From positions 387,515 through 451,514 of the forward strand of contig JBFWNS010000001.1 in NCBI GenBank assembly GCA_050250935.1: a DNA stretch of 64,000 nt, given 5' to 3'. The DNA is from Candidatus Margulisiibacteriota bacterium. Its GTDB lineage: Bacteria > Margulisbacteria > Marinamargulisbacteria > JBFWNS01. This document shows positions 2,684 through 47,766 of the stretch, piece by piece. The first letter of the stretch is position 1, and each line of letters begins with the position of its first letter. The notes beneath the pieces were generated by a model, which saw only the letters and a list, made by a program, of their open reading frames with translations, was not told where the DNA came from and did not search any database. The translations under genes were made by a program, and so were the position numbers.

Positions 2684-3298
2684 TTACAGTCGTTTGAGGA
2701 GCAGTTTGATGCCTTCTTCGAGGCTGAGGGTGTCGTGCAGCTGGTCTGCAGCGGTGGTGAGGGCTTTTTGAACTTCGCCTTGGGAATAGCCCAGGGTTTT
2801 CATGGCCAAGGTTAAGTCTGCAATCCAATCGGCGCTGACTTTTGAGGCTGGATTGGCGGATTTAACGGCCATCATATCGGCCGAGGCGCCAAACACTTTT
2901 GCTACCTTGTCTTTAAGCTCGACCACCAAGCGTTCGGCTACTTTTTTGCCAACTCCGGGCACTTGGGTGAGGGCCGCCACGTTTTCGGCCAACAAGGCCT
3001 GTACAAATTCTTGGCTCGAAAACACGGCCAAAAATTTCTGCCCCACCTTGGGCCCAACCCCAGACACCGAGGTTAAGAGCATGAACAATTCCCGTTCTTC
3101 CAGATCGGCAAAGCCAAACAAGGTTTGTTGATCCTCTCGCACATGGTGATAGATGTAAATGGACGCCGCGTTTCCCCCACGGGTTAAGCTGGCCAAAAGC
3201 CGGTCATGCACAAAAACTTGATAGCCAACCCCGCCGGTCTCGATCACCACAGAGTCTTCGAAGGCATGGTTTAGGGTTCCGGTCAGAGAGAAAATCAT
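2684..3298 (-). CDS. ruvA: Holliday junction branch migration protein RuvA
   Basis: GVGY, HHVRED, LFGF, VSGVGPK and VPGVGKKVAERLVVELKDK HhH motifs; ATG overlaps the ruvC stop (ATGA). Confidence 0.97.
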   Translation of the reverse strand: MIFSLTGTLNHAFEDSVVIETGGVGYQVFVHDRLLASLTRGGNAASIYIYHHVREDQQTLFGFADLEERELFMLLTSVSGVGPKVGQKFLAVFSSQEFVQALLAENVAALTQVPGVGKKVAERLVVELKDKVAKVFGASADMMAVKSANPASKVSADWIADLTLAMKTLGYSQGEVQKALTTAADQLHDTLSLEEGIKLLLKRL

Positions 3299-3783
3299 GA
3301 GAGGGATTTTATCCGATAGAAATGGCTGTGACAAATGGCCAAGGCCAGGCCATCGGCGGCATCATCGGGTTTGGGGATGTCAGGCAGGTTTAAGAGCTGC
3401 TTGACCATGTACTGCACCTGCTGTTTTTCGGCCTTCCCATAGCCACAAACTGCGGTTTTAACCTGTAGGGGGGTGTAGCTGCTAATGGCCTCGATGCCCG
3501 CCTGTTCTGCGGTTAACAACAACACCCCACGCGCTTGGCTGACCACCATGGCCGTGGTGACGTTTTTGGCAAAAAACAATTCTTCTATCGCCATCGAGGT
3601 GGGTTGATGGCTGCTCAGCAGGTCTTTGAGCTTGTTCGAGAGCATTAAAAGACGTTTGGACAGTTCCATCTTGGGCGGCGTGGTCAGGATACCGTGTTCA
3701 ATAAACCGCAGTTTTGATCCTTTTTTTTCAATCAGGCCATAGCCGGTTGTGGCCAGGCCAGGATCGAGTCCTAGAATGACCAT
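3295..3783 (-). CDS. ruvC: Crossover junction endodeoxyribonuclease RuvC
   Basis: MVILGLDPGLATTGYG, AIEELFF, VCGYGKAEKQQV, DDAADGLALAICH. Confidence 0.97.
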   Translation of the reverse strand: MVILGLDPGLATTGYGLIEKKGSKLRFIEHGILTTPPKMELSKRLLMLSNKLKDLLSSHQPTSMAIEELFFAKNVTTAMVVSQARGVLLLTAEQAGIEAISSYTPLQVKTAVCGYGKAEKQQVQYMVKQLLNLPDIPKPDDAADGLALAICHSHFYRIKSLS

Positions 3784-3996
3784 TGGTATAACACACCGTC
3801 GGAGCCGGTGTGTGTCGCTGCGTGAAGCAAGTTCACGCTGCTCGCCCTGCGGCATTGATATAACACACCGTCGGAGCCGGTGTGTGTCGCTGCGTGAAGC
3901 AAGTTCACGCTGCTCGCCCTACGGCATTGATATAACACACCGTCGGAGCCGGTGTGTGTCGCTGCGTGAAGCAAGTTCACGCTGCTCGCCCTGCGG
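3781..3996. repeat. Tandem repeat, 3 x 72 bp, each unit with two hairpins (REP/REPIN-like)
   Basis: Units start at 3781, 3853 and 3925 and differ at only two positions. Each has ACACACCG-N7-CGGTGTGT and GCTGCGTGAA-N5-TTCACGCTGC (one mismatch). Confidence 0.97.
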
Positions 3997-4059
3997 GGCT
4001 TGCTTGGGTTTTTTACGGGAGCTTGGCTCTTGCGGCCTGGTTCTGCCTTGTGTGTCGCA

Positions 4060-5019
4060 TTAGGCATAGGCGATGTTGGAGAGTTTGATGAGGAGTGTTT
4101 CGCCGGGTTTTACAAAATCGCGGAAGGTGATTTTTTGGGTCTTTGAAACGGTTGTGGTGGCGAATTGGTCTTGGGTTTCGGGGGTACACGCAACCTCGAT
4201 GCCCCGCAAATCGGCCACCAAAACCCCGTCTTCTTTGATGATTTCGGCTTGGAGGCTGATGGTTTCTGGAAAAGGATGGCCTTGGCTGACACGGTTTTGG
4301 GCCAGAATCAAACCGGCGTCTTCCACAATCATCCATTGCATAATGCCCATCATGACGGGATTGCCGGGAAAATGGCCTCGGCATAACGGGTGGGTTTCAG
4401 GAAAATGATAGGCAAAAACCGATTCGCTTTCGGTCTCGTGAACCCAAGCATCGACCATGACCATGGCCTTGTCTTTATGAAACACCGATTTATCGATGGC
4501 TTTGGACTGGGTTTGGGGGTACACCTCCACTTTCTTTTTGACGGCTTTGGCAGCTTCTTCGGGGGTGGGGGCTTGCATAAAAATGGCCGACATATCACCT
4601 TTGGCCACGGTTTGCCCGGCTTCGTTTTCGATGGTGCCGGTGTAAAACATAAATTCGCCCTTGCTTTTGACTTTGCGTACCGTGCCCACCATGCGGGTTC
4701 CCAAAGGAATAGAGCCTGTGCATTCAAAATTGGAAATGCCTGAAAAATAGGTCATTTGACCCGGCAGCAGCCGGCCTGTGGTCACAATCGAGGCCAGGGC
4801 CAGAACTTCCATGAAGGCCGTGGTTAAAAACACCGAGGTGGTTGGGGTGATTTTTTTGGAAAAAATATGGCGGCCTTGGGCATCGGGATTACCGATGGTT
4901 AAGGCCAGGGTTCCGCCCGGAACCCCCTCGATTTCCTCCATTTCAACGGCATCAAGAACCAGGTTTTCGAAACGGTGGGGAATGCGATCGGCAATGTCGA
5001 TTTGGGAAAGTCTTGTCAT
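4060..5019 (-). CDS. Tandem double-hotdog FabA/FabZ-like dehydratase
   Basis: N-domain IPHRFENLVLDAV...FMEVLALA; C-domain GHFPGNPVMMG; linked by an Ala/Lys-rich segment. Confidence 0.75.
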   Translation of the reverse strand: MTRLSQIDIADRIPHRFENLVLDAVEMEEIEGVPGGTLALTIGNPDAQGRHIFSKKITPTTSVFLTTAFMEVLALASIVTTGRLLPGQMTYFSGISNFECTGSIPLGTRMVGTVRKVKSKGEFMFYTGTIENEAGQTVAKGDMSAIFMQAPTPEEAAKAVKKKVEVYPQTQSKAIDKSVFHKDKAMVMVDAWVHETESESVFAYHFPETHPLCRGHFPGNPVMMGIMQWMIVEDAGLILAQNRVSQGHPFPETISLQAEIIKEDGVLVADLRGIEVACTPETQDQFATTTVSKTQKITFRDFVKPGETLLIKLSNIAYA

Positions 5020-5030
5020 TTAAATAGCCT

Positions 5031-5780
5031 TTACTGGTGGTGTTTCATGGCCTTGCGAAGGCGTTCGAGGGCGCTGGTGAGCAAGCGCGAGATGTGCATT
5101 TGAGAGAGGTTTAGTTTTTCGGCGATTTCCATTTGGGACAATCCCATAAAAAACCGGTAATAGATGATTTTTTTCTCGCGATCGTTCAAAACTAAGACCA
5201 CTTGTTTGAGGGTTTCTTTGTCCAAAACCGTTTCTTCGTGGCCGGCCACACCCAAGGTTTCAAGCAAGGTCCCACCTTCGCCACCCGAGCTATTGCGGTG
5301 AGAGGGCATATCCAAAGAGACCACAGTGCCCGTTTGACTGACTTCCATAGACTCCAAAACTTCTTCTTCGGAAAGCCCCGTATGGGTGGCAATTTCTTGA
5401 ATGGTTGGCGAGCGCCCTTCGGATTCGACTTGGCGCATGTAGACTTTGACTTTGCTGTAGTTTTCCTGCATGCGACGGGGCACTTTGACGAGCCGCCCTT
5501 TGTCTCTGAAATAGTGCTTGATTTCCCCAATAATGTTCGGGGTGGCAAAGGTTGAAAAATCGGTGTCCATGGCCGGTTCATATCGGTCTAGACAGCGCAA
5601 CAGACTGATGCTGCCCACTTGGACCAGATCGTCGAAATCGTTGCGGTTAAAGGCCAATTTTCGGGCAATACTCTCCACCAGAGGACGGTAGAGGAGAATC
5701 ACTTCATCCCTTACAGCGAGATCTCGGGATTCGAAATAGCTTAAAACCAACGCTTCTTTTGATTGTTTTGAAGTAGGCAT
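5031..5780 (-). CDS. SigB/SigF-family RNA polymerase sigma factor
   Basis: DDLVQVGSISLLRCLDRYEP, FSTFATPNIIGEIKHYFRD, VKVPRR, SQMEIAEKLNLSQMHISRL. Confidence 0.92.
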   Translation of the reverse strand: MPTSKQSKEALVLSYFESRDLAVRDEVILLYRPLVESIARKLAFNRNDFDDLVQVGSISLLRCLDRYEPAMDTDFSTFATPNIIGEIKHYFRDKGRLVKVPRRMQENYSKVKVYMRQVESEGRSPTIQEIATHTGLSEEEVLESMEVSQTGTVVSLDMPSHRNSSGGEGGTLLETLGVAGHEETVLDKETLKQVVLVLNDREKKIIYYRFFMGLSQMEIAEKLNLSQMHISRLLTSALERLRKAMKHHQ

Positions 5781-5834
5781 GGGTGAAAGTGGATAGCATG
5801 TTAACACGGTCACTGCTATATTAACAGGATCATC

Positions 5835-10677: not shown

Positions 10678-11216
10678 GTTTTATCCAAATAATAAAACAA
10701 CTGCCCGTCTTTGGCTTTGAGGACGATGTTGAAATCGGAGGTTCCCCGAAAGGGCTCGCATTGTTGGGCACTGACGGGAATCAAGACCCTGGTGCCGGGC
10801 TTGGCAAAGCGTTTGGATAAAAACAGGATTTTTTCCGGGGCGGCAAAGGCCTTTGCGGTGACGGCATCGGCCATAAAAGGGGGCTTGTGAGACAGTTCCA
10901 AAATGTCTTTTTGGAAGACGGTGTAGTTGGTTAAGCCCAATTCAGATGAAATCCAGGTTAAAAACCGACTCTTTTTTTGGGTGGACTCCACGGCATACAC
11001 CTGATTTTGGGGATTGCAAATGGCAATGATGATGGACGGTAGCCCAGATCCAGAGCCCATGTCCAAGACTTTTGCGGGTCTGTTGCCAATCATCTCGGCC
11101 ATAAATCGGCTGTCCTGAACATGAAAAGGCAGGCGATCGTAGGCCTTTTTGGAATAGACATTGGTGTGCTCGTTAAAGGTTTTTAAAAGGTCGATATAGG
11201 CTTCTAGGGTGGGCAT
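10671..11216 (-). CDS. rsmG: 16S rRNA m7G527 methyltransferase
   Basis: LDMGSGSGLPSI, VESTQKK, VTAKAFA; directly downstream of mnmG. Start reassigned to MPTLEAY at 11216. Confidence 0.88.
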   Translation of the reverse strand: MPTLEAYIDLLKTFNEHTNVYSKKAYDRLPFHVQDSRFMAEMIGNRPAKVLDMGSGSGLPSIIIAICNPQNQVYAVESTQKKSRFLTWISSELGLTNYTVFQKDILELSHKPPFMADAVTAKAFAAPEKILFLSKRFAKPGTRVLIPVSAQQCEPFRGTSDFNIVLKAKDGQLFYYLDKTY

Positions 11217-11220
11217 AGGA

Positions 11221-22105: not shown

Positions 22106-23288
22106 GGGCCTTATGTAGGTGTTGCCACGCCAAAATTTGGTCTGGGCTATAGGTGATGTTCCGCCGAGCCCCCGTCCGTTCCAAGGTTTTGATAAATTGG
22201 TCCCAACGGTAGGAAACAAACCGGCCATATTCGCCCCAAGAAAAGGGCAGAATTTCGCCCCGGTTCAGGGTTGTGCCAAATACATTGGCCCCAGCACCCA
22301 CCACCGTTCCCGCATTGATGAGGGTACCAATGCCCGTTTTAACGTGATCGCCAATCAAGGCTCCCAAAAATTGTTCCGAGGTGGATTCCGCCACACCGTT
22401 TCGGGTGACCATGATGGTGCCATAGGTGTTTTTGAGGTTGGAGGTTGTGGTTCCGGCCCCCAAATTAACCCATTCGCCCAAGACACTATTTCCCAAATAC
22501 CCAGCATGGGCTTTGTTCGAATAGGCCCCCACGCAAGAGGCACTGATTTCTCCGGCCACCTTGGCCCAAGCCCCAATGCTGCTGCCGCTGACCCGACCTC
22601 CCAAGACCGACGCGTGTTTGCCAATGTAAAGGGGTCCTTCCAAACGACTGAAGGCTTGGATGGTAGCATCATCGTCGATATAAACGGGGCCTTTTTCGGT
22701 GGAAATCGACACAAAAGCGTCCAGGGTTACGCGGTGACCAATGTAGACTTTTTCGGAACAATCGATGGCCACTGGCGCCGGAATGGCACTGTGACACTCT
22801 CCACCACGGCCCAAGGTATTAAATTCTTCGGTTAAAAGCGCGCCATGGTGGTTAAACAAATCCCAAGGGCGGTGAATCAGCATTTGGGGTTCGGCTTGGA
22901 CACTGGTCCTATTTCGGCCTTGGGTTGCCAACAGTTCCGCAACCTCGCCCCCATCCACAAGGGCGGCCACCAGGGTTTCCCCAACCTTTAGGGCCGTTCC
23001 GGGTTCAAGATTTTGGATGCGGTCTGCCAAAGCAGCGGTCATCAGCACCCGGCCATTTAAAAGCCGACATGGTTGACCCGGTTTAACATGGTGGTAAAGC
23101 GGATACCCCGAGGGCAGCAACGGCAGAATCTCGGATCTTGCATGCAGATAAATGGGGTCGTGGGGAAAGGCCCGATGGATTTTTTCCAACACCGTCCCAA
23201 TGCCGGTTAGGGCCGTATAAACCGGGCGGGCCAAGGTTAAGGGACTCAGGTCTGGGTACTGTTTGTCTTCAAAAACACAGGTGATCAT
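22092..23288 (-). CDS. GlmU-like sugar nucleotidyltransferase/hexapeptide acyltransferase
   Basis: PLTLARP N-domain without the canonical GxGTR motif; hexapeptide LbH region; HAGYLGNS, NLGAGTTTSNLKN. Confidence 0.75.
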   Translation of the reverse strand: MITCVFEDKQYPDLSPLTLARPVYTALTGIGTVLEKIHRAFPHDPIYLHARSEILPLLPSGYPLYHHVKPGQPCRLLNGRVLMTAALADRIQNLEPGTALKVGETLVAALVDGGEVAELLATQGRNRTSVQAEPQMLIHRPWDLFNHHGALLTEEFNTLGRGGECHSAIPAPVAIDCSEKVYIGHRVTLDAFVSISTEKGPVYIDDDATIQAFSRLEGPLYIGKHASVLGGRVSGSSIGAWAKVAGEISASCVGAYSNKAHAGYLGNSVLGEWVNLGAGTTTSNLKNTYGTIMVTRNGVAESTSEQFLGALIGDHVKTGIGTLINAGTVVGAGANVFGTTLNRGEILPFSWGEYGRFVSYRWDQFIKTLERTGARRNITYSPDQILAWQHLHKAHANV

Positions 23289-24112: not shown

Positions 24113-24961
24113 ATGGCCATTCTAAAAAAATCACAATTGACCTCTTCAGAGCCGGTTTCTCGGGCAAAATCTCATGCCAAAACCCACGCGACTCCCAAGC
24201 TGATCCAAGCCGATAAAACGGCCACAGCCTTGCCAAGGTCCACCACCACGGCTCGACAACTTCCCAAATTAAAAGATCTCGAAAAACCCGTTGCCTCTTT
24301 GTCTGACCCTCACTTTAATCCCCAATTGGAAGCCGAACTGGCGGCATTAAAAGAACGCTACAGTGCCGAGGTTCGCCAAAAGATCGACGCGGATATTGCA
24401 GCCTACCGCGAGTCGCAATTTCATCAAATTGAGTTTGAAAAACAAGCCATTTTGGCCAAAGCCCAAAAAGAAGGCTACGAAGCCGGTAAACGGGAAGCCG
24501 ACAAAATTGTGACCGAAAAAGCCCAATTGTTTGTAACAGGCATGAGCGATATTGCCAAAGAAAAAAATCGGATCCTCGAAAACAGTACCGAACCGGTGTT
24601 GGATTTGGCCATCGACATTGCCAAGCGCATCGTGGAAGAAGAAATTAAACTGACCCCAGACCTTTGCATAGGGCTGGTCAAAGAAGCCCTGCGAAAAATT
24701 ACCGACAAAGACCGGGTGGTCATTCGGGTTAACGAAGAAGACGAAACCCTGATTCGGTCTCAAAAAGACGCCATCTTGCAGCTGATGAACGACATTAAAC
24801 AACTCGAAGTGCAAGTCGACCCCAAAGTGGATCGGGGTGGCTGCATTATCGAAACCAAACTGGGCTATATCGATGCCCGGGTGTCCACCAAGTTGGAAGT
24901 GATCCAACTGAGCTTGAAACAAGAATACGCCGAAGAGAAACGCGAACGGGGCCTGCTGTAG
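24113..24961 (+). CDS. fliH: FliH/SctL type III export stator
   Basis: AxxEGYEAG repeat, LAIDIAKRIV, GGCIIETKLGYIDARV. Confidence 0.88.
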   Translation: MAILKKSQLTSSEPVSRAKSHAKTHATPKLIQADKTATALPRSTTTARQLPKLKDLEKPVASLSDPHFNPQLEAELAALKERYSAEVRQKIDADIAAYRESQFHQIEFEKQAILAKAQKEGYEAGKREADKIVTEKAQLFVTGMSDIAKEKNRILENSTEPVLDLAIDIAKRIVEEEIKLTPDLCIGLVKEALRKITDKDRVVIRVNEEDETLIRSQKDAILQLMNDIKQLEVQVDPKVDRGGCIIETKLGYIDARVSTKLEVIQLSLKQEYAEEKRERGLL

Positions 24962-26268
24962 TGGCCTTGGATTTAACCCGCTATCACAAAGCGATTGACC
25001 GTCACGACATCATCAAGGTGGTGGGCAAGGTGATTGAGGTGGTGGGACTGGTCATCGAAGCCCAGGTTCAAGGGGTTTCTGTGGGCGAGGTTTGCCACAT
25101 TTATTTGGACGACGACAATTGGATTCGCAGCGAAGTCGTGGGCTTTCGCGAGGAACGGGTGTTGTTGATGCCCCTGGGCAGCATTGGTGGCATTCGCCCC
25201 GGCAGTAAAATCTATGCAACCGGACATCCCCTGGAAGCCAAAGTGGGCATGAATTTGTTGGGGCGAGTTTTGGATGGACTTGGCAACCCCATGGATGGCA
25301 AAGGCGAGCTGGAGTTCGAGACTGTGTACAACATCGATCGCGATCCTCCCGATGCCGTAATGCGGCCTCGCATTACCGAAGTTTTGAAAACAGGGGTCAA
25401 GGCCATCGATGGATTGTTGACCTTGGGAAAAGGACAACGGGTCGGTATTTTTGCCGGTTCTGGGGTCGGCAAAAGCACCCTGATGGGGATGTTGGCCCGA
25501 AACTGCGAAGCCGATGTCAACGTGATTAGTTTGATTGGCGAACGGGGCCGCGAGGTTAAAGACTTTATTGAAGAATCCTTGGGCGAAGAAGGCCTTAAAA
25601 AATCGGTGGTCATTTGTGCTACCTCGGACAAACCGCCAGTGGTTCGGCTCAAAGGCGCCTTGGTGGGCACAGCCATTGCCGAATATTTTCGGGATCAAGG
25701 CAAAAACGTGTTGTTTATGATGGACTCGGTCACCCGATTTGCCATGGCCCAACGCGAAATTGGTCTGGCCACCGGAGAGCCTCCCACAACCAAAGGATAC
25801 ACCCCCTCTGTGTTTGCCATGTTACCCCGCCTGATGGAACGGGCTGGCACCTCGGAAAAAGGAACCATCACCGCCATTTATACGGTTTTGGTCGACGGCG
25901 GCGACATGGACGAACCCATTGCCGACGCAGCCCGGGGGATTTTGGACGGGCACATGGTTCTGTCCCGAGATCTGGCCTCTAAAAATCATTATCCCTGTAT
26001 TGACATTGGGCCCAGCATCAGCCGGTTGGCTTCGGCCATTTCCGAAGCGGGACACAAAAAAGCTGCGGGTCAATTGCGGGAAGTGTTGGCCCGATACCAA
26101 GAGGCCGAAGATTTAATTAATATTGGCGCCTACGTCAAAGGCAGCAACCCCAAAATCGACTATGCCATCGACAAAATTGATGGGGTAAACAGCTTTTTGC
26201 GGCAAGCCACAGACGAAAACATTCCTTTTGACGACTCGATCAAAGCCCTGGTCCGGATGTTTTCATAA
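24961..26268 (+). CDS. fliI: FliI/SctN type III export ATPase
   Basis: GIFAGSGVGKS, LIGERGREV, MDSVTRFAMAQREIGL, LMERAG, GILDGH. Confidence 0.95.
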   Translation: MALDLTRYHKAIDRHDIIKVVGKVIEVVGLVIEAQVQGVSVGEVCHIYLDDDNWIRSEVVGFREERVLLMPLGSIGGIRPGSKIYATGHPLEAKVGMNLLGRVLDGLGNPMDGKGELEFETVYNIDRDPPDAVMRPRITEVLKTGVKAIDGLLTLGKGQRVGIFAGSGVGKSTLMGMLARNCEADVNVISLIGERGREVKDFIEESLGEEGLKKSVVICATSDKPPVVRLKGALVGTAIAEYFRDQGKNVLFMMDSVTRFAMAQREIGLATGEPPTTKGYTPSVFAMLPRLMERAGTSEKGTITAIYTVLVDGGDMDEPIADAARGILDGHMVLSRDLASKNHYPCIDIGPSISRLASAISEAGHKKAAGQLREVLARYQEAEDLINIGAYVKGSNPKIDYAIDKIDGVNSFLRQATDENIPFDDSIKALVRMFS

Positions 26269-26279
26269 GCCTTTAAGCA

Positions 26280-26851
26280 ATGGCCAGCAAACCCAAAAAA
26301 AGCAAACGATTTAACTACAACCTCACCGCAGTTCTCAAGGTTCGAGAAATTCGTGAAAAACAGCGCCAAGAAGCCTTTATGGAGGCCCAACGAGAACTCG
26401 AAGAAGAGCAAAAAAAAGAAGCCGAACTCAAACAAAACATCGCCGACAAATATCAAGAATTGCGGGAAGTTTTAACCGGAAAACGCCCCTCTACCGACAT
26501 CGCAGGGGAAGTCATTCAGCGTAAAACCAACCTCGAATCGCTTAACGAAAAATTGGCCGAACAAATCCAAAAACGGGAAGAAGCCGAAAAAAAAGTCGAC
26601 GAAGCCCGAGAAGAACTGATCAAAGCCGTTAAAGACAAAAAAATCATCGAAAAAGACAAAGAACACAAGCGGGTGGCCTGGCAAAAACTAATGATCAAAG
26701 AAGACAACAAGTTTATGGACGATATTTCCACAGTGGGTTTCGACCGAAAACGCCGCAAGGCCGAGGCCCTGGAAGAACAAGAAGACCAAGCCGATGCCAA
26801 AAAATTCGCAGCCGAAAACGCCGCCGAATCCAACCCCTTTAAGCTGAATTA

Positions 26852-26852
<1 letters not shown>
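26280..26852 (+). CDS. fliJ: FliJ/SctO coiled-coil export protein
   Basis: RFNYNLTAVLKVRE start, long charged coiled coil, KIIEKDKE, position after fliI. Confidence 0.8.
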
Positions 26853-29117
<2,265 letters not shown>

Positions 29118-41478: not shown

Positions 41479-43206
41479 TTATTGGGTTCCTGCCAACTGG
41501 GCTTGTAAGTGCTGGACCAGATCGGCAACCGTCATGCTGCCCAGGTCGTCGTTGTGCTTGCGAACCGAGATGGTGCCTTGTTCGGCTTCCTTGCCTCCGA
41601 TCACAAGACTGTAGGGTACTTTTTCGAGGGTGGCTTGGCGAATTTTTTGGCCCAGGCGATCGGAACTGAGGTCTGGCTCTACCCGAAAACCATGGGCTTC
41701 CAGGGCGTCTTGCACCGTTTGGGCATAGGCGGCCACCGAGTCGTTAACGGTGATCAACTTTACTTGAACCGGGGCCAACCACAAGGGGAATCGGCCTTCG
41801 TAATGCTCGATTAAAACCCCAAAAAACCGCTCGATGGAGCCCAACAACGCCCGATGGACCATATAGGGTCTTTTTTTAGCGCCATCGGAACCGATATAGG
41901 TCATATCGAAGCGTTCGGGGAGGTTAAAATCGAATTGAACCGTGGAACACTGCCATTCTCGGCCAATGGCATCTTCAATTTTGATATCGATTTTAGGGCC
42001 ATAAAAGGCACCGCCACCGTCGTCCACTTCGTAGGGAATGCCAAGCTGTTCGATGGCTCTTGCCAGGGCCGCTTCTGCCGCTGCCCACAAGGTTAAATCG
42101 CCGACATATTTTTCTTTGGGGCGGGTGGATAAAAAGACCTTAAAACGATCAAACCCAAAGGCTTTAAGCATGTCTGTACAAAAGGTTAGTACCCGCATGA
42201 TTTCGCCTTCCATTTGCTCTTCGGTGCAGATGATGTGGGCATCATCTTGGGTGAAACCGCGAACCCGCATCAATCCATGCAAAACCCCAGACCGCTCGTA
42301 GCGATAGACCGTGCCCAGTTCGGCAAAACGCAGGGGCAATTGGCGGTAGGATCGGGATTGGGTTTTATAAATCAGACAATGAAACGGACAGTTCATGGGT
42401 TTTAGAAAATAATCGTGGTCTTCCACATCCATGGCGGCATACATGTTTTCTTTGTAAAAATCCAAATGCCCGCTGGTTTTCCACAATTCGGCCTTGCCAA
42501 CATGGGGAGTGCTTAGCAAATCGTAGCCGGCTTTAAAATGCTGTTGTCGCCAAAACTCTTCGATGAGGTAGCGCACCTTGGCCCCTTTGGGATGCCACAA
42601 AATAAGTCCGCCACCAATTTCGTCGCTGACGCTGAACAGATCCAATTCTTTGCCCAAAAGTCGATGATCCCGTTTTTGAGCTTCGGCCATGCGATGCAAA
42701 TAGGTGTCCAGCTCAGCTTGGGTGTGAAAAGCGGTTCCGTAAATACGTTGCAGCATTTTGTTTTTTTCGGAGCCTTTCCAGTACGCCCCGGCCACTTTTA
42801 ACAGTTTTACAGCCCCAATGGACTCGGTATTGTTAACATGAGGCCCTTTGCATAAGTCCAAAAAGGGTCCATTTTCATAAAACGAATAACTGGGCAGTTG
42901 CAGGTCGTTTATCAGCTCTAATTTGTAGGACTGATGGCGACTTTCCATGAGTTCTTTGGCTTGATCAGCCGGCAAATCGTATTGCTTAAAGGTCTGATGC
43001 TCGGCAATAATCTGCTTCATTTTGTCTTCCAAAACCGTCAGATCTTCCGGGGTTAAAGAGCGGGGCAAATCAAAATCGTAATAAAACCCATCGTCGATGG
43101 CTGGGCCTATGGCCAATTTTGCATCGGGAAACACGTTTAAAACGGCTTGGGCCAAAACATGGGACGCGCTGTGACGAATTTCGAACAAAGAAGCTGACTG
43201 TGACAT
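41479..43206 (-). CDS. thrS: Threonine--tRNA ligase (no N-terminal TGS domain)
   Basis: RHSASH, DLCKGPH, RDHR, KPMNCP, RVRGFTQDDAH, GAFYGPKID. Confidence 0.98.
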   Translation of the reverse strand: MSQSASLFEIRHSASHVLAQAVLNVFPDAKLAIGPAIDDGFYYDFDLPRSLTPEDLTVLEDKMKQIIAEHQTFKQYDLPADQAKELMESRHQSYKLELINDLQLPSYSFYENGPFLDLCKGPHVNNTESIGAVKLLKVAGAYWKGSEKNKMLQRIYGTAFHTQAELDTYLHRMAEAQKRDHRLLGKELDLFSVSDEIGGGLILWHPKGAKVRYLIEEFWRQQHFKAGYDLLSTPHVGKAELWKTSGHLDFYKENMYAAMDVEDHDYFLKPMNCPFHCLIYKTQSRSYRQLPLRFAELGTVYRYERSGVLHGLMRVRGFTQDDAHIICTEEQMEGEIMRVLTFCTDMLKAFGFDRFKVFLSTRPKEKYVGDLTLWAAAEAALARAIEQLGIPYEVDDGGGAFYGPKIDIKIEDAIGREWQCSTVQFDFNLPERFDMTYIGSDGAKKRPYMVHRALLGSIERFFGVLIEHYEGRFPLWLAPVQVKLITVNDSVAAYAQTVQDALEAHGFRVEPDLSSDRLGQKIRQATLEKVPYSLVIGGKEAEQGTISVRKHNDDLGSMTVADLVQHLQAQLAGTQ

Positions 43207-43713: not shown

Positions 43714-44382
43714 TTACATAAATTGGGAATAGGAAACACCGATGGTGAACCCAGTGCCATAGCCCAAACTGTTGCTTAAATCGGTAAAGGCGGCGCGAAC
43801 CGCAAAATCAGGAAAATCGGAGAACACATAGCGAACCCCTGTATTAACTTGATACACTTTTTTGTTGCCATTGATATCGCCAATTAGCGACAATTGATTG
43901 GTCATCAGGTATTCCAACCCAGCCATCACGGTGGCGTTGACTTCGCTTTCGCCAAAATTGGCCTTAAATCCGAAATGCCCTTGGAAATTGGGGAATTTTT
44001 TACTGGCCACCATGTAGACATCGGTTAAGGAGTGGGAAGACAGGTTTTGAATCCCCAACGCCAAAGACAAGGGATATCGGCTTTCTTCGGCCATCAGATG
44101 GTATTTAACGTTTACAAACACCCCTTCTGTGGGAACTGATCCTCCAACAAACCCCAATTCCATGTTTTTGAAAGCGCCTAAATTAAATTTGTAGAACAAA
44201 CTGCTTTTTCCGTTGGATTGGGAAATCGAATCCACACCAAAATTGTATTCTTTGTACTGTAGGGCTTCGGCTGAAGGCACCATAATCAGGCCGGTTGTAC
44301 CCCCGATGGTTGGGGTGGCCAATACTGGGGTGGCCAGGGCCAGCATCAACACCAATCCGTAGCAGAGTTTTTTAATGTGCAT
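43714..44382 (-). CDS. YjbH-domain-like outer membrane protein
   Basis: Signal peptide, GGTTGLIMVPSAEAL start, beta-strand pattern. Confidence 0.6.
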   Translation of the reverse strand: MHIKKLCYGLVLMLALATPVLATPTIGGTTGLIMVPSAEALQYKEYNFGVDSISQSNGKSSLFYKFNLGAFKNMELGFVGGSVPTEGVFVNVKYHLMAEESRYPLSLALGIQNLSSHSLTDVYMVASKKFPNFQGHFGFKANFGESEVNATVMAGLEYLMTNQLSLIGDINGNKKVYQVNTGVRYVFSDFPDFAVRAAFTDLSNSLGYGTGFTIGVSYSQFM

Positions 44383-45367
44383 GTTTTTTTCCACCTTGTT
44401 TTTTATAGTTTTGAATTAAGCGACGTAAAATGGCCTGATCTTCGAGCTCCTGTTGATGCGGTCTGGCCGGATAGCCCGACAACATGCCTTTGGTCTTGTG
44501 GGACTTGGTAACCCCGCCTTTGGCAGCCACCACAATATCGTCCCCCAATTCGATGTTGTTGACGCCTACCTGGCCTGCCAAGACCACCCGACGGCCAATT
44601 TTAGCGCCGCCGACAAATCCAACTTGAGCCGTAATGATACAGTCCTCGCCGATGACGGTATTATGGGCGATATGCACCAAATTATCAATTTTGGTTCCGG
44701 ACCCAATGATTGTATCACCCAGGGTTCCGCGATCAATGGTGGCATTGCTGCCGATTTCAACCGCATCGCCAATGCGAACACGGCCCACTTGGGGAATTTT
44801 ATGGGATTTACCCGTGGCATCTTGGTGATAGCCAAACCCATCCGAGCCAATTACTGTACCTGCATGAATGGTCACATGGTTGCCCACGACAACCCCGGGG
44901 TACAACACGACTTGGGCAAACAGCCGAACATGGGTACCCACCACGACCCCAGAGCCAACACAGGCGTGGGGGCCAATGGACGTCCCTTCGCCAACCACAG
45001 CGCCGGCCTCGATACAAGCAAAGGGCCCCAGCACCACGGAGGGATGCACCTGGGCCGTGGGATGCACCCAAGCCGAAGATCCTGCCCAATCTGGGGGCTG
45101 CTCTGGATTAAACCTGGCCAACAAAACCGCCATAGCCTGGCGGGGATTTCCCACCACCAATTGGGGCAAAGACGAGGTTTCAATCGCGGTTTTAACCACA
45201 AGCGCAGCAGCCTGGGTTTGATCCAAAAACGGCTTGTATTTGTCTTCAAAACAAAAGGAAATATGGCCAGGTTGGGCTTGATCTATGGACGAAACCCCGA
45301 CAATTTCGGTGTCGGGGTCGCCTATTACGATTGCGTTTAATTCAGACGCGAGTGCTGAAAGTTTCAA
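44372..45367 (-). CDS. lpxD: UDP-3-O-acylglucosamine N-acyltransferase
   Basis: IGSDGFGY, VEIG.NATIDRG, KIDNLVHIAHN, hexapeptide repeats. Confidence 0.96.
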   Translation of the reverse strand: MKLSALASELNAIVIGDPDTEIVGVSSIDQAQPGHISFCFEDKYKPFLDQTQAAALVVKTAIETSSLPQLVVGNPRQAMAVLLARFNPEQPPDWAGSSAWVHPTAQVHPSVVLGPFACIEAGAVVGEGTSIGPHACVGSGVVVGTHVRLFAQVVLYPGVVVGNHVTIHAGTVIGSDGFGYHQDATGKSHKIPQVGRVRIGDAVEIGSNATIDRGTLGDTIIGSGTKIDNLVHIAHNTVIGEDCIITAQVGFVGGAKIGRRVVLAGQVGVNNIELGDDIVVAAKGGVTKSHKTKGMLSGYPARPHQQELEDQAILRRLIQNYKKQGGKKHAH

Positions 45368-45829
45368 CTATTTGTTCAGTTTTTCCAGTACAAAATCGGT
45401 TAAATCGAAACCGCCAGCATAGACCACCCGTTTATCCAACACGGTGTCGATGCCATATTCTTTGGCTGTTTTTTTAGAAACTTCCACAATTTTAGACAAC
45501 AACGTGCGTTGCTTTTCGGCTTCGTATTTCAACATGGATTCTTGTTTGGGCTTTAATTCACCCTCGATTTTATCGATCATTTTTTGGATTTCTTCGTCTT
45601 TTTTGCCTTTTCTTCTGGCGGTTTCCACTTCTTTTTGTTTTTCTTCAAAGATTTTTTGATACTCCAAGCGTTTTTGTTGAAGCTCGTCTTGGACTTTTTT
45701 GGCTTCTTTATAGTTCACAGAAATTTTTTCCATATCCACAAACCCGATGCTATCCGCAAACGATTGAGTGGCAAATGACAACGCAAAAACAGCAACCAAA
45801 GCAAACAGGGCGATTTTGAGGGATTTCAT
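45368..45829 (-). CDS. skp: OmpH/Skp periplasmic chaperone
   Basis: Signal peptide, IGFVDMEKI, coiled coil, DLTDFVL; position between bamA and lpxD. Confidence 0.9.
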   Translation of the reverse strand: MKSLKIALFALVAVFALSFATQSFADSIGFVDMEKISVNYKEAKKVQDELQQKRLEYQKIFEEKQKEVETARRKGKKDEEIQKMIDKIEGELKPKQESMLKYEAEKQRTLLSKIVEVSKKTAKEYGIDTVLDKRVVYAGGFDLTDFVLEKLNK

Positions 45830-45870
45830 GATAAATTTTGTCCTTTCTTTAAACACAATTAAACGCGGGT

Positions 45871-47760
45871 CTAGAATGCTTGACCAATGCTGAAGTGTAG
45901 CCTAGACACACCCAGATCGTCTAGCCCAAAGTCCAGGCGAATGGCCCCCAAGGGCGGAATATTAAACCGAACCCCAACCCCTTTTCCCACAATAAAATTG
46001 GCGGGCTGCAGGAATTTGGAATAGCCTTGAAGGGTTGCAAACCCCGTGTCCATAAACAAGATAAATTGGAAACTGTCGGTAAACAGAAACCGATATTCCA
46101 CGCTGGCCAACATTTTGGCATTTCCCGAATAACGGGGAGGCCAATCCGCAAATCCACGAACCGTGTCTGCCCCACCAATGCGGTAATATTCGCCACTAAA
46201 CAGATCTTGATCCGTGATGTTGGGCGCTGTCATAAAGCCCACATCATAGCGAAGGGCCAGCACTTGCTGATCAACCACCTTAAAAAATTTCCGTAAGGAC
46301 AAATCAATCCGGGTAAAATCCAAGGAATCTTCGGTTAATTTAAAGCTTTTTTCGACATTAAGGGAATGAAACTCCCCTTCGGTGGGGTTGAACCAGACAT
46401 CCCGGGTGTCATAGCTGATACCAGACAACAAGCTGTGCACTTTGTAAGACTTTTTTACATCGGGCAAAGTGACGGTTTCATATTTGAACCCAGTGTTGGT
46501 TTTGAGCTCGTAAGAAAAAGGAATTCCAAAATCGATCTCTACCCCTTTCCGGCGTTCGTTACGGTTGGTGAATCCGCCGCTGAGGGGGGTAACAGGGACC
46601 TGTCCATCGGTGGCCCAGGTTTTTAGGGTTAAAGACTTTCGTTTGTCCCACATCCATGGATTTACATATTTAAACTGATAGGTGGTGCTTTGCCCCGACG
46701 TCGAAGTCCCACCCAAATTGAACTGTCCTTTGAGCATGATGACTTGGCCTTCGCCAAACAAATTGTCCCAATACAAATCGGAGAAAATATTAAACCCACT
46801 GTATTGGCTGAAACCGCCGCCAAAGGTGAAGGTGCCACTAGATTCCCGTTCGGTCACATTAATTTCCATGACACTGGTGTTGGCTTCTTTTCCAGGTAAA
46901 AAATTGGGCTGCAAATCGGTAAAATAGTTCAGGTTATAAACGCGTCGAAGGTCTTCTTTAAGGGTTTTTTCTTGGAAGGGCTCGCCTGGCTGGGTGACCA
47001 TTTCTCGAAGAATGACATGGGATTTGGTTTTGAAATTGCCTGTTACAGTGATGTCTTCGATGACCCCTTCGCTGATTTTGTAGATCAAGGGCTGGCCACT
47101 GGCATCGGGGGTCTCGACGCTGACAACCTTGGCCATGGAATAGCCTTTTTGATGGTAAAAATCTTGGAGGATGTCGATATCGGCCCGAACCAAGCGCAGG
47201 TTCAGCACATCGTTGGCCTTGGATTTGAGAAGCGCTTCCAATTCCCAACCACTAAAGACTGTATTGCCCGTAAATTGGATGGCCGAAATTGTGGAATTTT
47301 CTTGAATAAAGAAAGTTAAGCGGCGCCCTTTTGGTGTGTTGTCCACAGCCGTTCTGACGGATTGGAAAACACCCAGAGACTGGATCAGTTGGATATTGCG
47401 GTTAATCAGGGCCGGGGACAAACCATCGCCGGGTCTTAACATGATTTGATTGAGGATGAGTGTGGTTGGGATGGTTTTGTTCCCTGTTACCACCATTTCG
47501 AACAACCGGTTTTCGGTGGATACTTTTTCGGGAACCGAAACTTTGTTGGACACTGGCGCATCGACAGCTTCGAGAATTTTTTTAAGGGAAAGGGGATTTT
47601 TTTGATCGGCGTTGGCAGAAGGCGAAGACTGCTTAACCGTGGTGATGACTTTTTTTAGGGTGATGGGCTTTTTGGGCGGGGTTTTAGACCAGGCTGGGGT
47701 TGCCAATAGGACAAGCACCACAGCCAAACTTACGCGGTTGCTTTTGAAAAACTGTCTCAT
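45871..47760 (-). CDS. bamA: Omp85/BamA with three POTRA-like repeats
   Basis: Three xxGNx POTRA starts, VRGF loop-6 motif, C-terminal FSIGQAF. Confidence 0.9.
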   Translation of the reverse strand: MRQFFKSNRVSLAVVLVLLATPAWSKTPPKKPITLKKVITTVKQSSPSANADQKNPLSLKKILEAVDAPVSNKVSVPEKVSTENRLFEMVVTGNKTIPTTLILNQIMLRPGDGLSPALINRNIQLIQSLGVFQSVRTAVDNTPKGRRLTFFIQENSTISAIQFTGNTVFSGWELEALLKSKANDVLNLRLVRADIDILQDFYHQKGYSMAKVVSVETPDASGQPLIYKISEGVIEDITVTGNFKTKSHVILREMVTQPGEPFQEKTLKEDLRRVYNLNYFTDLQPNFLPGKEANTSVMEINVTERESSGTFTFGGGFSQYSGFNIFSDLYWDNLFGEGQVIMLKGQFNLGGTSTSGQSTTYQFKYVNPWMWDKRKSLTLKTWATDGQVPVTPLSGGFTNRNERRKGVEIDFGIPFSYELKTNTGFKYETVTLPDVKKSYKVHSLLSGISYDTRDVWFNPTEGEFHSLNVEKSFKLTEDSLDFTRIDLSLRKFFKVVDQQVLALRYDVGFMTAPNITDQDLFSGEYYRIGGADTVRGFADWPPRYSGNAKMLASVEYRFLFTDSFQFILFMDTGFATLQGYSKFLQPANFIVGKGVGVRFNIPPLGAIRLDFGLDDLGVSRLHFSIGQAF

Positions 47761-47766
47761 GCCCAA

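Follow-up and report, generated by a model that had tools for sequence, protein, structure and literature searches.

A three-copy 72-bp tandem repeat that supplies the start codon of ruvC in a Margulisbacteria operon

Introduction

What kind of element is a tandem array whose every unit ends in a start codon, and what might it do to the gene whose start codon it supplies? This question is raised by the ruvC gene in a 64,000-nt stretch of DNA from a Candidatus Margulisiibacteriota bacterium (assembly GCA_050250935.1, contig JBFWNS010000001.1, positions 387,515 to 451,514), which we refer to as the window. Three near-identical 72-bp units, each containing two hairpins, lie between ruvC and the gene upstream of it in the operon. 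A previous examination of the letters alone (hereafter the sequence-only reading) had offered two interpretations, namely a new REP-like element amplified in tandem or a translational control of ruvC that varies with copy number. All coordinates below are window positions, and searches of this genome for further copies of the unit cover the window.

Our analysis indicates, with slightly better than even confidence, that the array is an intercistronic minisatellite specific to this lineage and to this locus. Below we describe the units and the start codons that they carry, the presence of the repeat in sequencing reads and the corresponding junction in related genomes, and we weigh each competing explanation where the evidence that bears on it is presented.

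Results

Three units in register, each ending in ATG

Tandem Repeats Finder places the array at 3781-3996 with a period of 72, 3.0 copies, 97% matches, 0 indels and a score of 418, and reports it as the sole strong array in the window. An independent repeat search recovered the same three units in the same register (3781-3852, 3853-3924 and 3925-3996). The array comprises exactly 3.0 copies, and the repeat runs into neither flank. Both searches agree with the sequence-only reading, which had described three 72-bp units that differ at two positions. These single-nucleotide polymorphisms (SNPs) are found at unit position 6, where G is present at 3786 and A at 3858 and 3930, and at unit position 69, where A is present at 3921 and G at 3849 and 3993. 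On the minus strand, from which ruvC is read, the first is private to the ruvC-proximal unit (unit 1, 3781..3852) and the second to the middle unit (unit 2, 3853..3924), and the distal unit (unit 3, 3925..3996) equals the consensus. Both SNPs fall outside the hairpins, in unpaired linker.

The two hairpins are present in all three units and can form on both strands. Hairpin 1 (3791..3813, repeated at 3863-3885 and 3935-3957) is a palindrome of the form ACACACCG-N7-CGGTGTGT; the perfect 8-bp stem that had been attributed to it is found in each of the three copies. Its 3′ foot on the mRNA strand lies 10 nt from the unit end and 7 nt before the A of the ATG. Hairpin 2 (3817..3841, repeated at 3889-3913 and 3961-3985) has the form GCTGCGTGAA-N5-TTCACGCTGC. 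Its 10-bp stem does contain one mismatch, as proposed previously, but this is not central: it is third from the base, such that the stem consists of 7 bp, the mismatch and 2 bp.

Each unit ends in ATG on the ruvC strand, and the three ATGs share one reading frame. The proximal ATG (3783..3781) opens a 162-aa RuvC (3295..3783, minus strand) that matches Pfam RuvC (PF02075) with E = 3.9e-53 over residues 3-152 and has 5868 homologues at E <= 1e-20. Its N-terminus, MVILGLDPG, aligns with the first residues of homologues (MIILGLDPG, MRILGIDPG), and the source annotation also places the start at 3783..3781. Homology thus confirms the earlier view that the last of the unit-terminal ATGs is the ruvC start, and the ATG of the 162-aa form is the native start codon. 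The middle ATG (3855..3853) opens a 186-aa open reading frame (ORF) that is RuvC with 24 additional N-terminal residues. The distal ATG (3927..3925) is followed by CCG TAG and opens only a Met-Pro-stop mini-ORF (3927..3919), whose TAG is due to the SNP at 3921. The succession of mini-ORF, extended RuvC and native RuvC that had been read from the three ATGs is therefore as described. A 187-aa RuvC homologue (P0005) was considered as a precedent for the extended form and rejected; its N-terminal sequence is unrelated, and it looks like an over-long start call.

No GGAG, GAGG or AGGA was found before any of the three ATGs, in agreement with the reported absence of a Shine-Dalgarno sequence (SD) at the ruvC start. 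Clear SDs precede other window genes (for example aaaggagaat, taaggagaaacc and ataggagcaccc). The three AUGs have identical context, and the predicted probabilities that the RNA around them is unpaired are 0.67, 0.65 and 0.53. Downstream, the ruvC TGA overlaps the ATG of ruvA (2684..3298, minus strand; RuvA_N, HHH_5 and RuvA_C domains) in the sequence ATGA, an arrangement by which ruvA is predicted to be translationally coupled to ruvC. Given the like context and accessibility of the three AUGs, the second interpretation of the sequence-only reading, copy-number-variable translational control of ruvC, appears plausible.

The repeat is present in sequencing reads

The source of the window is a metagenome-derived NCBI contig, and near-identical 72-bp repeats are hard for short-read assemblers. 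The array might thus be an assembly artefact, or its copy number might be wrong, the true genome having one unit or some other number. This possibility is addressed by a 35.8-kb Logan contig, SRR27751816_18598, which matches the window without a difference along the upstream gene and the 63-nt spacer that follows it. This contig breaks off after precisely 30 nt of the distal unit. Logan builds its assemblies from graphs of 31-mers, each of which is by design present once (PMC12424806). The contig ends at k-1 = 30 nt because the next 31-mer has two left neighbours, and the unit indeed has two left contexts: C precedes it after the spacer, and G precedes it after the preceding ATG. A single unit would be traversed into ruvC, so the repeat exists in the reads. 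In addition, each unit has its own SNP combination, and by our reasoning 127-mers and reads of at least 150 nt across the array would be unique.

The sequence-only reading had itself raised the possibility that the reads hold a single unit. Examined through the break in the Logan contig, the reads are found to contain the repeat. The repeat is thus real, the exact count of three resting on the assembly, and we regard an assembly artefact or miscounted array as extremely unlikely.

The insert is absent from the orthologous junction of relatives

The gene upstream of the array (4060..5019, minus strand) encodes a 319-aa hot-dog-fold ApeI-like protein. It follows a gene for a sigma-70-family sigma factor (5031..5813, minus strand), the first of the series sigma - apeI-like - ruvC - ruvA. 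The nearest RuvC proteins among 5.8 billion sequences are only 62-63% identical, and these nearest relatives (<=63% identity) belong to unclassified metagenome-assembled genomes and to Candidatus Firestonebacteria. At this distance there is no close relative, and intergenic DNA is not alignable. Gene order can be compared: relatives carry murF-murE and, divergently, sigma - (ApeI-like) - ruvC - ruvA - (methyltransferase) - dnaA.

We measured the distance from the upstream stop codon to the ruvC start in six syntenic relatives. Where the upstream gene is ApeI-like, the distance is 0 nt in L002 (TAAATG), -4 in both L009 and L011, and +7 in L010; where it is the sigma factor gene, the distance is -4 in L004/L005 (ATGA) and +22 in a 404-kb JGI contig. 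The same distance in the window is 276 nt, against -4 to +22 nt in the six relatives. Over its full length the window gene is orthologous to that of L002, where the stop codon directly adjoins ruvC; the two proteins are 39% identical across 318 aa (E = 2e-70) and have the same C-terminus. Hence, at about 62% RuvC identity, the orthologous junctions are without the insert in 6/6 relatives. A short contig (L003) has a 211-nt AT-rich gap at this position that is without repeats.

No clear SD was found before ruvC in the relatives, which is consistent with a dependence of ruvC on translational coupling. Conserved overlapping junctions also lead us to infer co-transcription across the array. This comparison shows that, in this lineage, 276 nt of GC-rich DNA with palindromes have come to occupy an otherwise tight, coupled ApeI-like/ruvC junction.

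This lineage-specific interval (3784..4059, minus strand) is composed of a 63-nt non-repeated spacer and 3 x 72 nt minus the ATG. The spacer (3997..4059, minus strand) extends from the upstream stop codon to the array and is weakly structured alone. We considered whether it is a decayed fourth unit and rejected the idea. Its similarity to the unit, which includes a common 10-mer, GCGACACACA, of (CA)n-like character, is not significant (p = 0.18, dinucleotide shuffles).

At the upstream edge of the interval the sequence reads TAATG (4058..4062, minus strand), a stop codon of the upstream gene that overlaps an unused ATG, as can be read directly from the sequence. This ATG opens only a 15-codon ORF now, and TAATG could be the ancestral overlapping stop and start; such overlaps are frequent in operons, and the relatives have TAAATG or ATGA. 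The 3′ end of the insert reads CAATG, so that AATG forms a direct repeat around 273 nt. The presence of AATG on both sides would fit an element that inserted just 3′ of the former start codon and brought the one now in use, although a match of this kind, noticed post hoc, has a chance of about 1/16 to 1/64.

Beyond ruvA the window and its relatives diverge. In L002, L004, L010 and L011, dnaA-dnaN comes after ruvA, with or without an intervening methyltransferase gene. In the window a methyltransferase gene (1939-2673) is followed by genes for a pyruvoyl-dependent arginine decarboxylase (1278-1829) and a class-III aminotransferase (13-1317). The replacement of dnaA-dnaN by the decarboxylase and aminotransferase genes means that origin-proximal synteny is broken in the window. 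We also considered a connection of the array to a replication origin, given that dnaA adjoins the operon in relatives. This idea was discarded; there is no GC-skew switch in the window, and the array is intra-operonic.

Structure of the units

The 276-nt interval has the highest GC content of the intergenic stretches (0.59, against 0.495 for the window) and is also the most structured of them. Its predicted folding energy of -0.39 to -0.43 kcal/mol per nt is the lowest of 25 intergenic intervals, one of which actually holds rsmG, missed by the ORF filter. A single unit folded as single-stranded DNA (ssDNA) gives z = -4.4 on the plus strand and -3.7 on the minus strand, with 0/200 dinucleotide shuffles as good. 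When folded as RNA, the unit gives z = -1.4 (plus strand) and -2.2 (ruvC strand), and the 325-nt leader gives z = -3.45. With <=3 mismatches allowed, each hairpin pattern is expected 0.00 times in a shuffled window. The stems are purely Watson-Crick and form the same structure on both strands; for this reason, folding alone cannot tell whether DNA or RNA is the relevant molecule.

The sequence-only reading had speculated that the array extrudes cruciforms resembling RuvC substrates and thereby feeds back on the gene. We find no support for such a link. Stems of 8-10 bp with 5-7-nt loops, as present here, are short for cruciform extrusion in vivo.

Symmetric palindromes with 5-7-nt centres are typical of operator geometry, and E. 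coli ruvAB is under SOS control. The hairpins might therefore be sites for a dimeric regulator, ACACACCG-N7-CGGTGTGT and/or GTGAA-N5-TTCAC, triplicated before ruvCA and bound, for example, by an SOS-type or sigma-linked repressor. The pure Watson-Crick pairing and the symmetry on both strands fit such a DNA operator array. However, no similar palindrome is present upstream of other window genes, and the lone relaxed match to CACCG-N9-CGGTG, at 41734, is inside the ThrRS coding region. The site is also intra-operonic rather than at the head of the operon, and no regulator was identified. Neither a sigma-70-like promoter nor an intrinsic terminator was found on the ruvC strand of the interval, and no sigma-54-like motif was seen in it by eye. 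Considering these points, an operator array seems very doubtful indeed.

A search for known structured RNAs was also negative. Rfam 15 covariance models gave no match at E <= 10 on either strand of 3200-4600, and the whole window yielded two tRNAs only.

No support in the window for a REP-like element, and an unlikely HUH-transposed origin

The proposal that the array is a REP-like element amplified in tandem rested on mismatched hairpins preceded by GTAG. REPs are 20-40-bp palindromes, most of which have a terminal GTAG or CGTC tag (PMC3733652). They number >100 copies per genome, are regularly spaced in alternating orientation in BIMEs (PMC2817692) and are associated with Y1 transposases (PMC3333891); the RAYT (Y1 HUH) transposases of REP, BIME and REPIN elements are also treated elsewhere (PMC3116915). 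The consensus unit reads CCGCAG, and GTAG occurs in only 1/3 units, through the SNP at 3921. CGTC occurs in the unit only across the stem/loop boundary of hairpin 1. Furthermore, no sequence is common to hairpin 1 (ACACACCG...) and hairpin 2 (GCGTGAA...), and the units are direct repeats. In this the array differs from BIMEs and REPINs, where a single REP recurs with its orientation alternating.

The search by BLASTN for dispersed copies that had been suggested was equally unproductive. No further copy of hairpin 1 or 2 (<=3 mismatches) is present in the other 63.8 kb of the window, and the array and chance 8-11-mers were all that was returned by blastn-short, whether the query was the unit or one of its halves, and by relaxed half-site patterns. 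With zero copies in 63.8 kb, the density is at most about 47 copies per Mb (95% limit). This limit excludes an E. coli-like (enterobacterial) REP density but is still compatible with a family of about 100 copies per genome or with a sparse MIRU-like family. An exact IUPAC pattern of hairpin 1 plus linker gave no real match in species-representative genomes, JGI metagenomes or IMG/VR; a single genome match, inside an Actinomycetospora coding region, was set aside as a chance match. A pattern of hairpin 2 plus tail had no real match in JGI metagenome contigs, and distant blastn against plasmid and phage collections returned nothing.

A nearby RAYT gene, the other expectation of the REP-like reading, was likewise not found. 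Such genes usually have their own REPs on either side. A Pfam scan detected no Y1_Tnp (PF01797) among the window ORFs, and when the window was searched by tblastn with a Y1_Tnp protein, the top match (E = 0.37) fell within a biotin-synthase-like gene. Without a conserved GTAG, related hairpins or further copies in the window, the REP-like interpretation finds no support in the DNA analysed.

A broader version of this idea is that the unit is a REP/BIME-, REPIN- or IS200/IS605-derived (PATE-like) element moved by a Y1 HUH transposase encoded elsewhere, and that the tandem array arose by repeated insertion 3′ of a self-recreated AATG. Near the ends of every unit lie two palindromes, one perfect and one imperfect, with stable ssDNA folds (z = -4.4, -3.7), and AATG terminates every unit and the left flank alike. 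The right hairpin foot lies 10 nt from the unit end, which we take to be the distance at the right end of IS608; this is a lead and not a test. A similar layout exists on an unrelated contig (L007, described below), with a 72-bp x 8.5 array directly after a Y1_Tnp gene, but the DNA of that unit is dissimilar (p = 0.57). The conserved GTAG or CGTC tag is missing, GTAG occurring in 1/3 units via a SNP (PMC3733652), and hairpins without common sequence would not both be recognised by a single transposase, nor are they copies of one REP that alternates in orientation (PMC2817692). The other intergenic intervals of the window hold no copy and its ORFs no Y1_Tnp gene, and no collection searched gave a real match. 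We therefore consider this origin very unlikely.

The contig just mentioned, L007:1-2249 (JGI 3300031901, Ga0307406_10073424), is a high-GC metagenome contig on which a Y1_Tnp gene (600-1331) lies between tandem arrays of 42 bp x 7 (1-291) and 72 bp x 8.5 (1346-1953), a 212-aa ORF (P0152) running through the second. The 72-bp unit of L007 is not unusually structured (z = -1.5) and was reached via a repeat-versus-repeat artefact of phmmer (see below). As it is dissimilar to the window unit, the L007 Y1_Tnp gene is no evidence about the ruvC locus.

A bridging reading frame and a possible translational relay

A 98-codon ORF (3771..4067, minus strand), in the +1 frame relative to ruvC, spans the spacer and all three units and overlaps both flanking genes. 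Its ATG (4067..4065) lies 2 nt before the upstream TAA (ATGCCTAA), and its TAG (3773..3771) ends 13 nt past the first base of the ruvC ATG. This candidate relay ORF is compatible with chance. When spacer and unit were dinucleotide-shuffled with the flanks fixed, an open frame with the same ends arose in 40% of cases. Its codon log-odds of -0.08 is the best of six frames; for reference, real genes score 0.58 +/- 0.19 and off-frames -0.77 +/- 0.28. In this frame each SNP alters the third base of a codon and leaves the amino acid the same (TAC/TAT, CGC/CGT), and conservation of the hairpins would explain the restriction of SNPs to linkers equally well as coding constraint.

A phmmer search with the 98-aa product against 1.8 billion representatives returned 262 matches (best 6.7e-35), mostly to BspA-type LRR_5 proteins with repeats of 23-24 aa. 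With a single-unit query nothing was left (E >= 3e3; the best value, 0.019, was for a 30-aa unit summed over 9 stretches). Pfam recognised no LRR in the 98-aa ORF, and a word-indexed search found nothing. We therefore rejected the ORF as a member of a real protein family, the phmmer matches being an artefact of repeat-versus-repeat periodicity that vanishes with the single-unit query. Two of these matches, P0152 and P0226, were excluded on separate grounds; they are ORFs called through other arrays (on L007 and L008), whose DNA units are dissimilar to ours (p = 0.57 and 0.9).

Two further observations come from this search. One is a caution: a translated minisatellite with a 24-aa period yields E values as low as 1e-35 against LRR_5 and DUF285-type repeat proteins. 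The other is that the 95-aa ORF P0226, at L008:521-683 (Logan SRR25727942_74014), has been called through a 63-bp x 2.7 repeat.

The bridging ORF is the core of another explanation, in which the array belongs to a dispersed class of elements resembling MIRUs, the mycobacterial interspersed repetitive units (Supply et al., 1997; see PMC12548453 and PMC3184786 for summaries). Insertion at start codons and an internal ORF coupled to the next gene are described for MIRUs, as are G-C-rich internal inverted repeats, 4-nt direct repeats and a location in polycistronic operons (PMC12548453; PMC3184786). The insert would then be one copy, or three, of a small element that lands at start codons and carries its own ATG and relay ORF. 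Ribosomes that have completed the upstream gene would restart at ATG 4067, read through the hairpins as far as TAG 3771 and begin again at the ruvC AUG, which lies 10 nt upstream of that stop. The insertion would thus leave coupling intact, and a 24-codon unit would keep the frame at any copy number.

Several features accord with this relay. The ORF overlaps both flanking genes, the unit corresponds to a whole number of codons (24), neither SNP changes the product of the 98-codon frame, and the codon log-odds (-0.08) is the best of the six frames. In addition, ruvC is without an SD both here and in relatives with abutting or overlapping junctions, the sequences TAATG and CAATG flank the insert, and the features of MIRUs given in the literature match (PMC12548453; PMC3184786). 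MIRUs number 40-50 copies per mycobacterial genome (PMC3184786); at that density about 0.6 further copies are expected in 64 kb, which makes the count of zero uninformative. On the other hand, the shuffles that reproduce the open frame (40%) and a log-odds 3.4 SD below that of real genes speak against a translated relay. The ORF is also absent from the source annotation and without true homologues, its stop lies 13 nt past the first base of the ruvC AUG rather than in the -4/-1 geometry of MIRUs, and one locus only is known. Given this balance, a MIRU-like relay is a possible but rather unlikely explanation. The most specific form of it is that the unit is a start-codon-targeting mobile element of an uncultivated Gram-negative-type lineage that inserts 3′ of (A)ATG at stop/start overlaps, supplies an AUG of its own, carries a stop-free 24-codon relay frame by which operon coupling is preserved and, through its copy number, sets both the dose and the N-terminal isoform of RuvC, a Holliday-junction resolvase. 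We consider that combined proposal distinctly unlikely.

Other features of the window

In a single ORF of 473 aa (56157-57578, plus strand), residues 73-194 form a FabA/FabZ-like dehydratase domain, and LpxA-type hexapeptide and Acetyltransf_11 domains are present as well. It looks like a FabZ-LpxA fusion, and lpxB is the next gene. Genes for flagellar export (FliH, a FliI-type ATPase and FliJ) and for the outer membrane (BamA/Omp85, OmpH, LpxD and LpxB) are present at 24113-27520 and 44372-47766, from which the source organism is predicted to be flagellated and to have an outer membrane.

Among the intergenic intervals, 22715-23284 consists of 570 nt between co-oriented genes with a GC content of 0.55 and a folding energy of -0.32 to -0.34 kcal/mol per nt. 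It contains no ORF >=90 aa in the gene list and has no Rfam match, and it may hold a small gene or RNA. The 543-nt gap in the longest-ORF list at 10678-11220 (minus strand), downstream of mnmG, is coding; according to Logan calls (L012:3804-4349) it encodes a 181-aa GidB/RsmG methyltransferase.

Discussion

The repeat signal in the reads, the empty junction of six relatives and the confinement of the unit to one place in the window are most simply accommodated by a minisatellite that arose at this junction. We propose that 72 nt, corresponding to the last 69 nt of the leader and the ruvC ATG, were amplified to three head-to-tail copies, probably through replication slippage or unequal recombination favoured by the hairpins. 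The amplification appears to be recent, because only 2 differences are present in 216 nt. The array would be transcribed within the operon mRNA and fold into six local hairpins. It would thereby remove the direct termination-reinitiation coupling of ruvC to the upstream gene and offer three identical SD-less AUGs, each in an unpaired linker of ~20 nt. Of these, the distal AUG would be neutralised by the TAG SNP, the middle AUG would give RuvC with 24 extra residues, and the proximal AUG would give native RuvC. The net effect is likely to be lower, uncoupled RuvC/RuvA synthesis, and a change in copy number would shift the ratio of decoy to productive starts. No evidence for a transposase or regulator dedicated to the array was seen in the analysis of the window.

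Some observations weigh against a minisatellite that arose by neutral duplication. The boundary of the unit coincides precisely with the third base of the start codon, and neither side shows microhomology; TAATG is found at the upstream stop and CAATG at the end of the insert; the lengths of spacer and unit, 63 and 72 nt, are both divisible by 3; and both SNPs are outside the hairpins as well as synonymous in the 98-codon frame. These four coincidences hint at targeting or selection, each being weak (p ~0.06-0.3) and recognised post hoc. Moreover, pure Watson-Crick palindromes are equally compatible with a role at the DNA level.

If the array is a minisatellite only, it represents a natural case of a tandem duplication that includes a start codon and so creates decoy and extension starts, and one in which an ancestral translational coupling has been broken in a DNA-repair operon. 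It would then also be useful as a strain marker for an uncultivated lineage. If further copies exist at other start codons, the locus would instead extend the MIRU principle beyond mycobacteria, that is, a small element is tolerated at a start codon since it carries its own start codon and a coupling ORF.

How, then, does the array compare with known systems? It shares with variable-number tandem repeats (VNTRs) and minisatellites the head-to-tail arrangement of near-identical copies without indels, the restriction to one locus with absence from relatives, and a unit length like that of many typing VNTRs. It differs from them in that the unit includes a start codon and ends on it, such that copy number alters the initiation sites of a gene in an essential pathway, and in that the unit is unusually structured for its genome.

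The likeness to REPs lies in the short palindromic hairpins (23-25 nt here), the intergenic position inside an operon and the even spacing of the hairpins, two of which belong to every repeat. Enterobacterial REPs located between cistrons make the mRNA upstream of them more stable and reduce expression of the genes downstream, an effect of the kind proposed here. Unlike REPs, however, the array has no conserved GTAG/CGTC tag, contains two unrelated hairpins instead of the same REP in alternating orientation, and is accompanied by neither another copy in 63.8 kb nor a RAYT gene in the window. PATEs, which are non-autonomous derivatives of IS200/IS605, resemble the units in having subterminal hairpins near both ends, and their insertion 3′ of a short target without classic inverted terminal repeats invites the same comparison. 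The 72-bp unit is much shorter than a PATE, its left and right hairpins are dissimilar, and no transposase or further copies were found in the window.

The closest anatomical match is to MIRUs. The tandem unit of 72 bp is within the MIRU range of 40-100 bp, the site is intercistronic between co-oriented genes of a syntenic operon, and the internal inverted repeats are G-C-rich. The last bases of the element are the start codon of the gene that follows, an ORF overlaps the flanking stop and start (as it does in 40% of shuffles), AATG may be a 4-nt direct repeat, and the orthologous junction is empty in relatives. In contrast to the 40-50 loci of mycobacteria, one locus is known here, in a 64-kb window, and the host is of an unrelated Gram-negative type; the likeness seen is one of anatomy. 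Also, one ORF runs through all units here versus one per unit in MIRUs, and it stops 13 nt past the first base of the start codon as opposed to overlapping it by -4. The sequence of the array is without relatives in the window and the collections searched, and its kind is known: it is a structured intergenic tandem repeat within an operon, whose anatomy is nearest to that of MIRUs and not to that of REPs.

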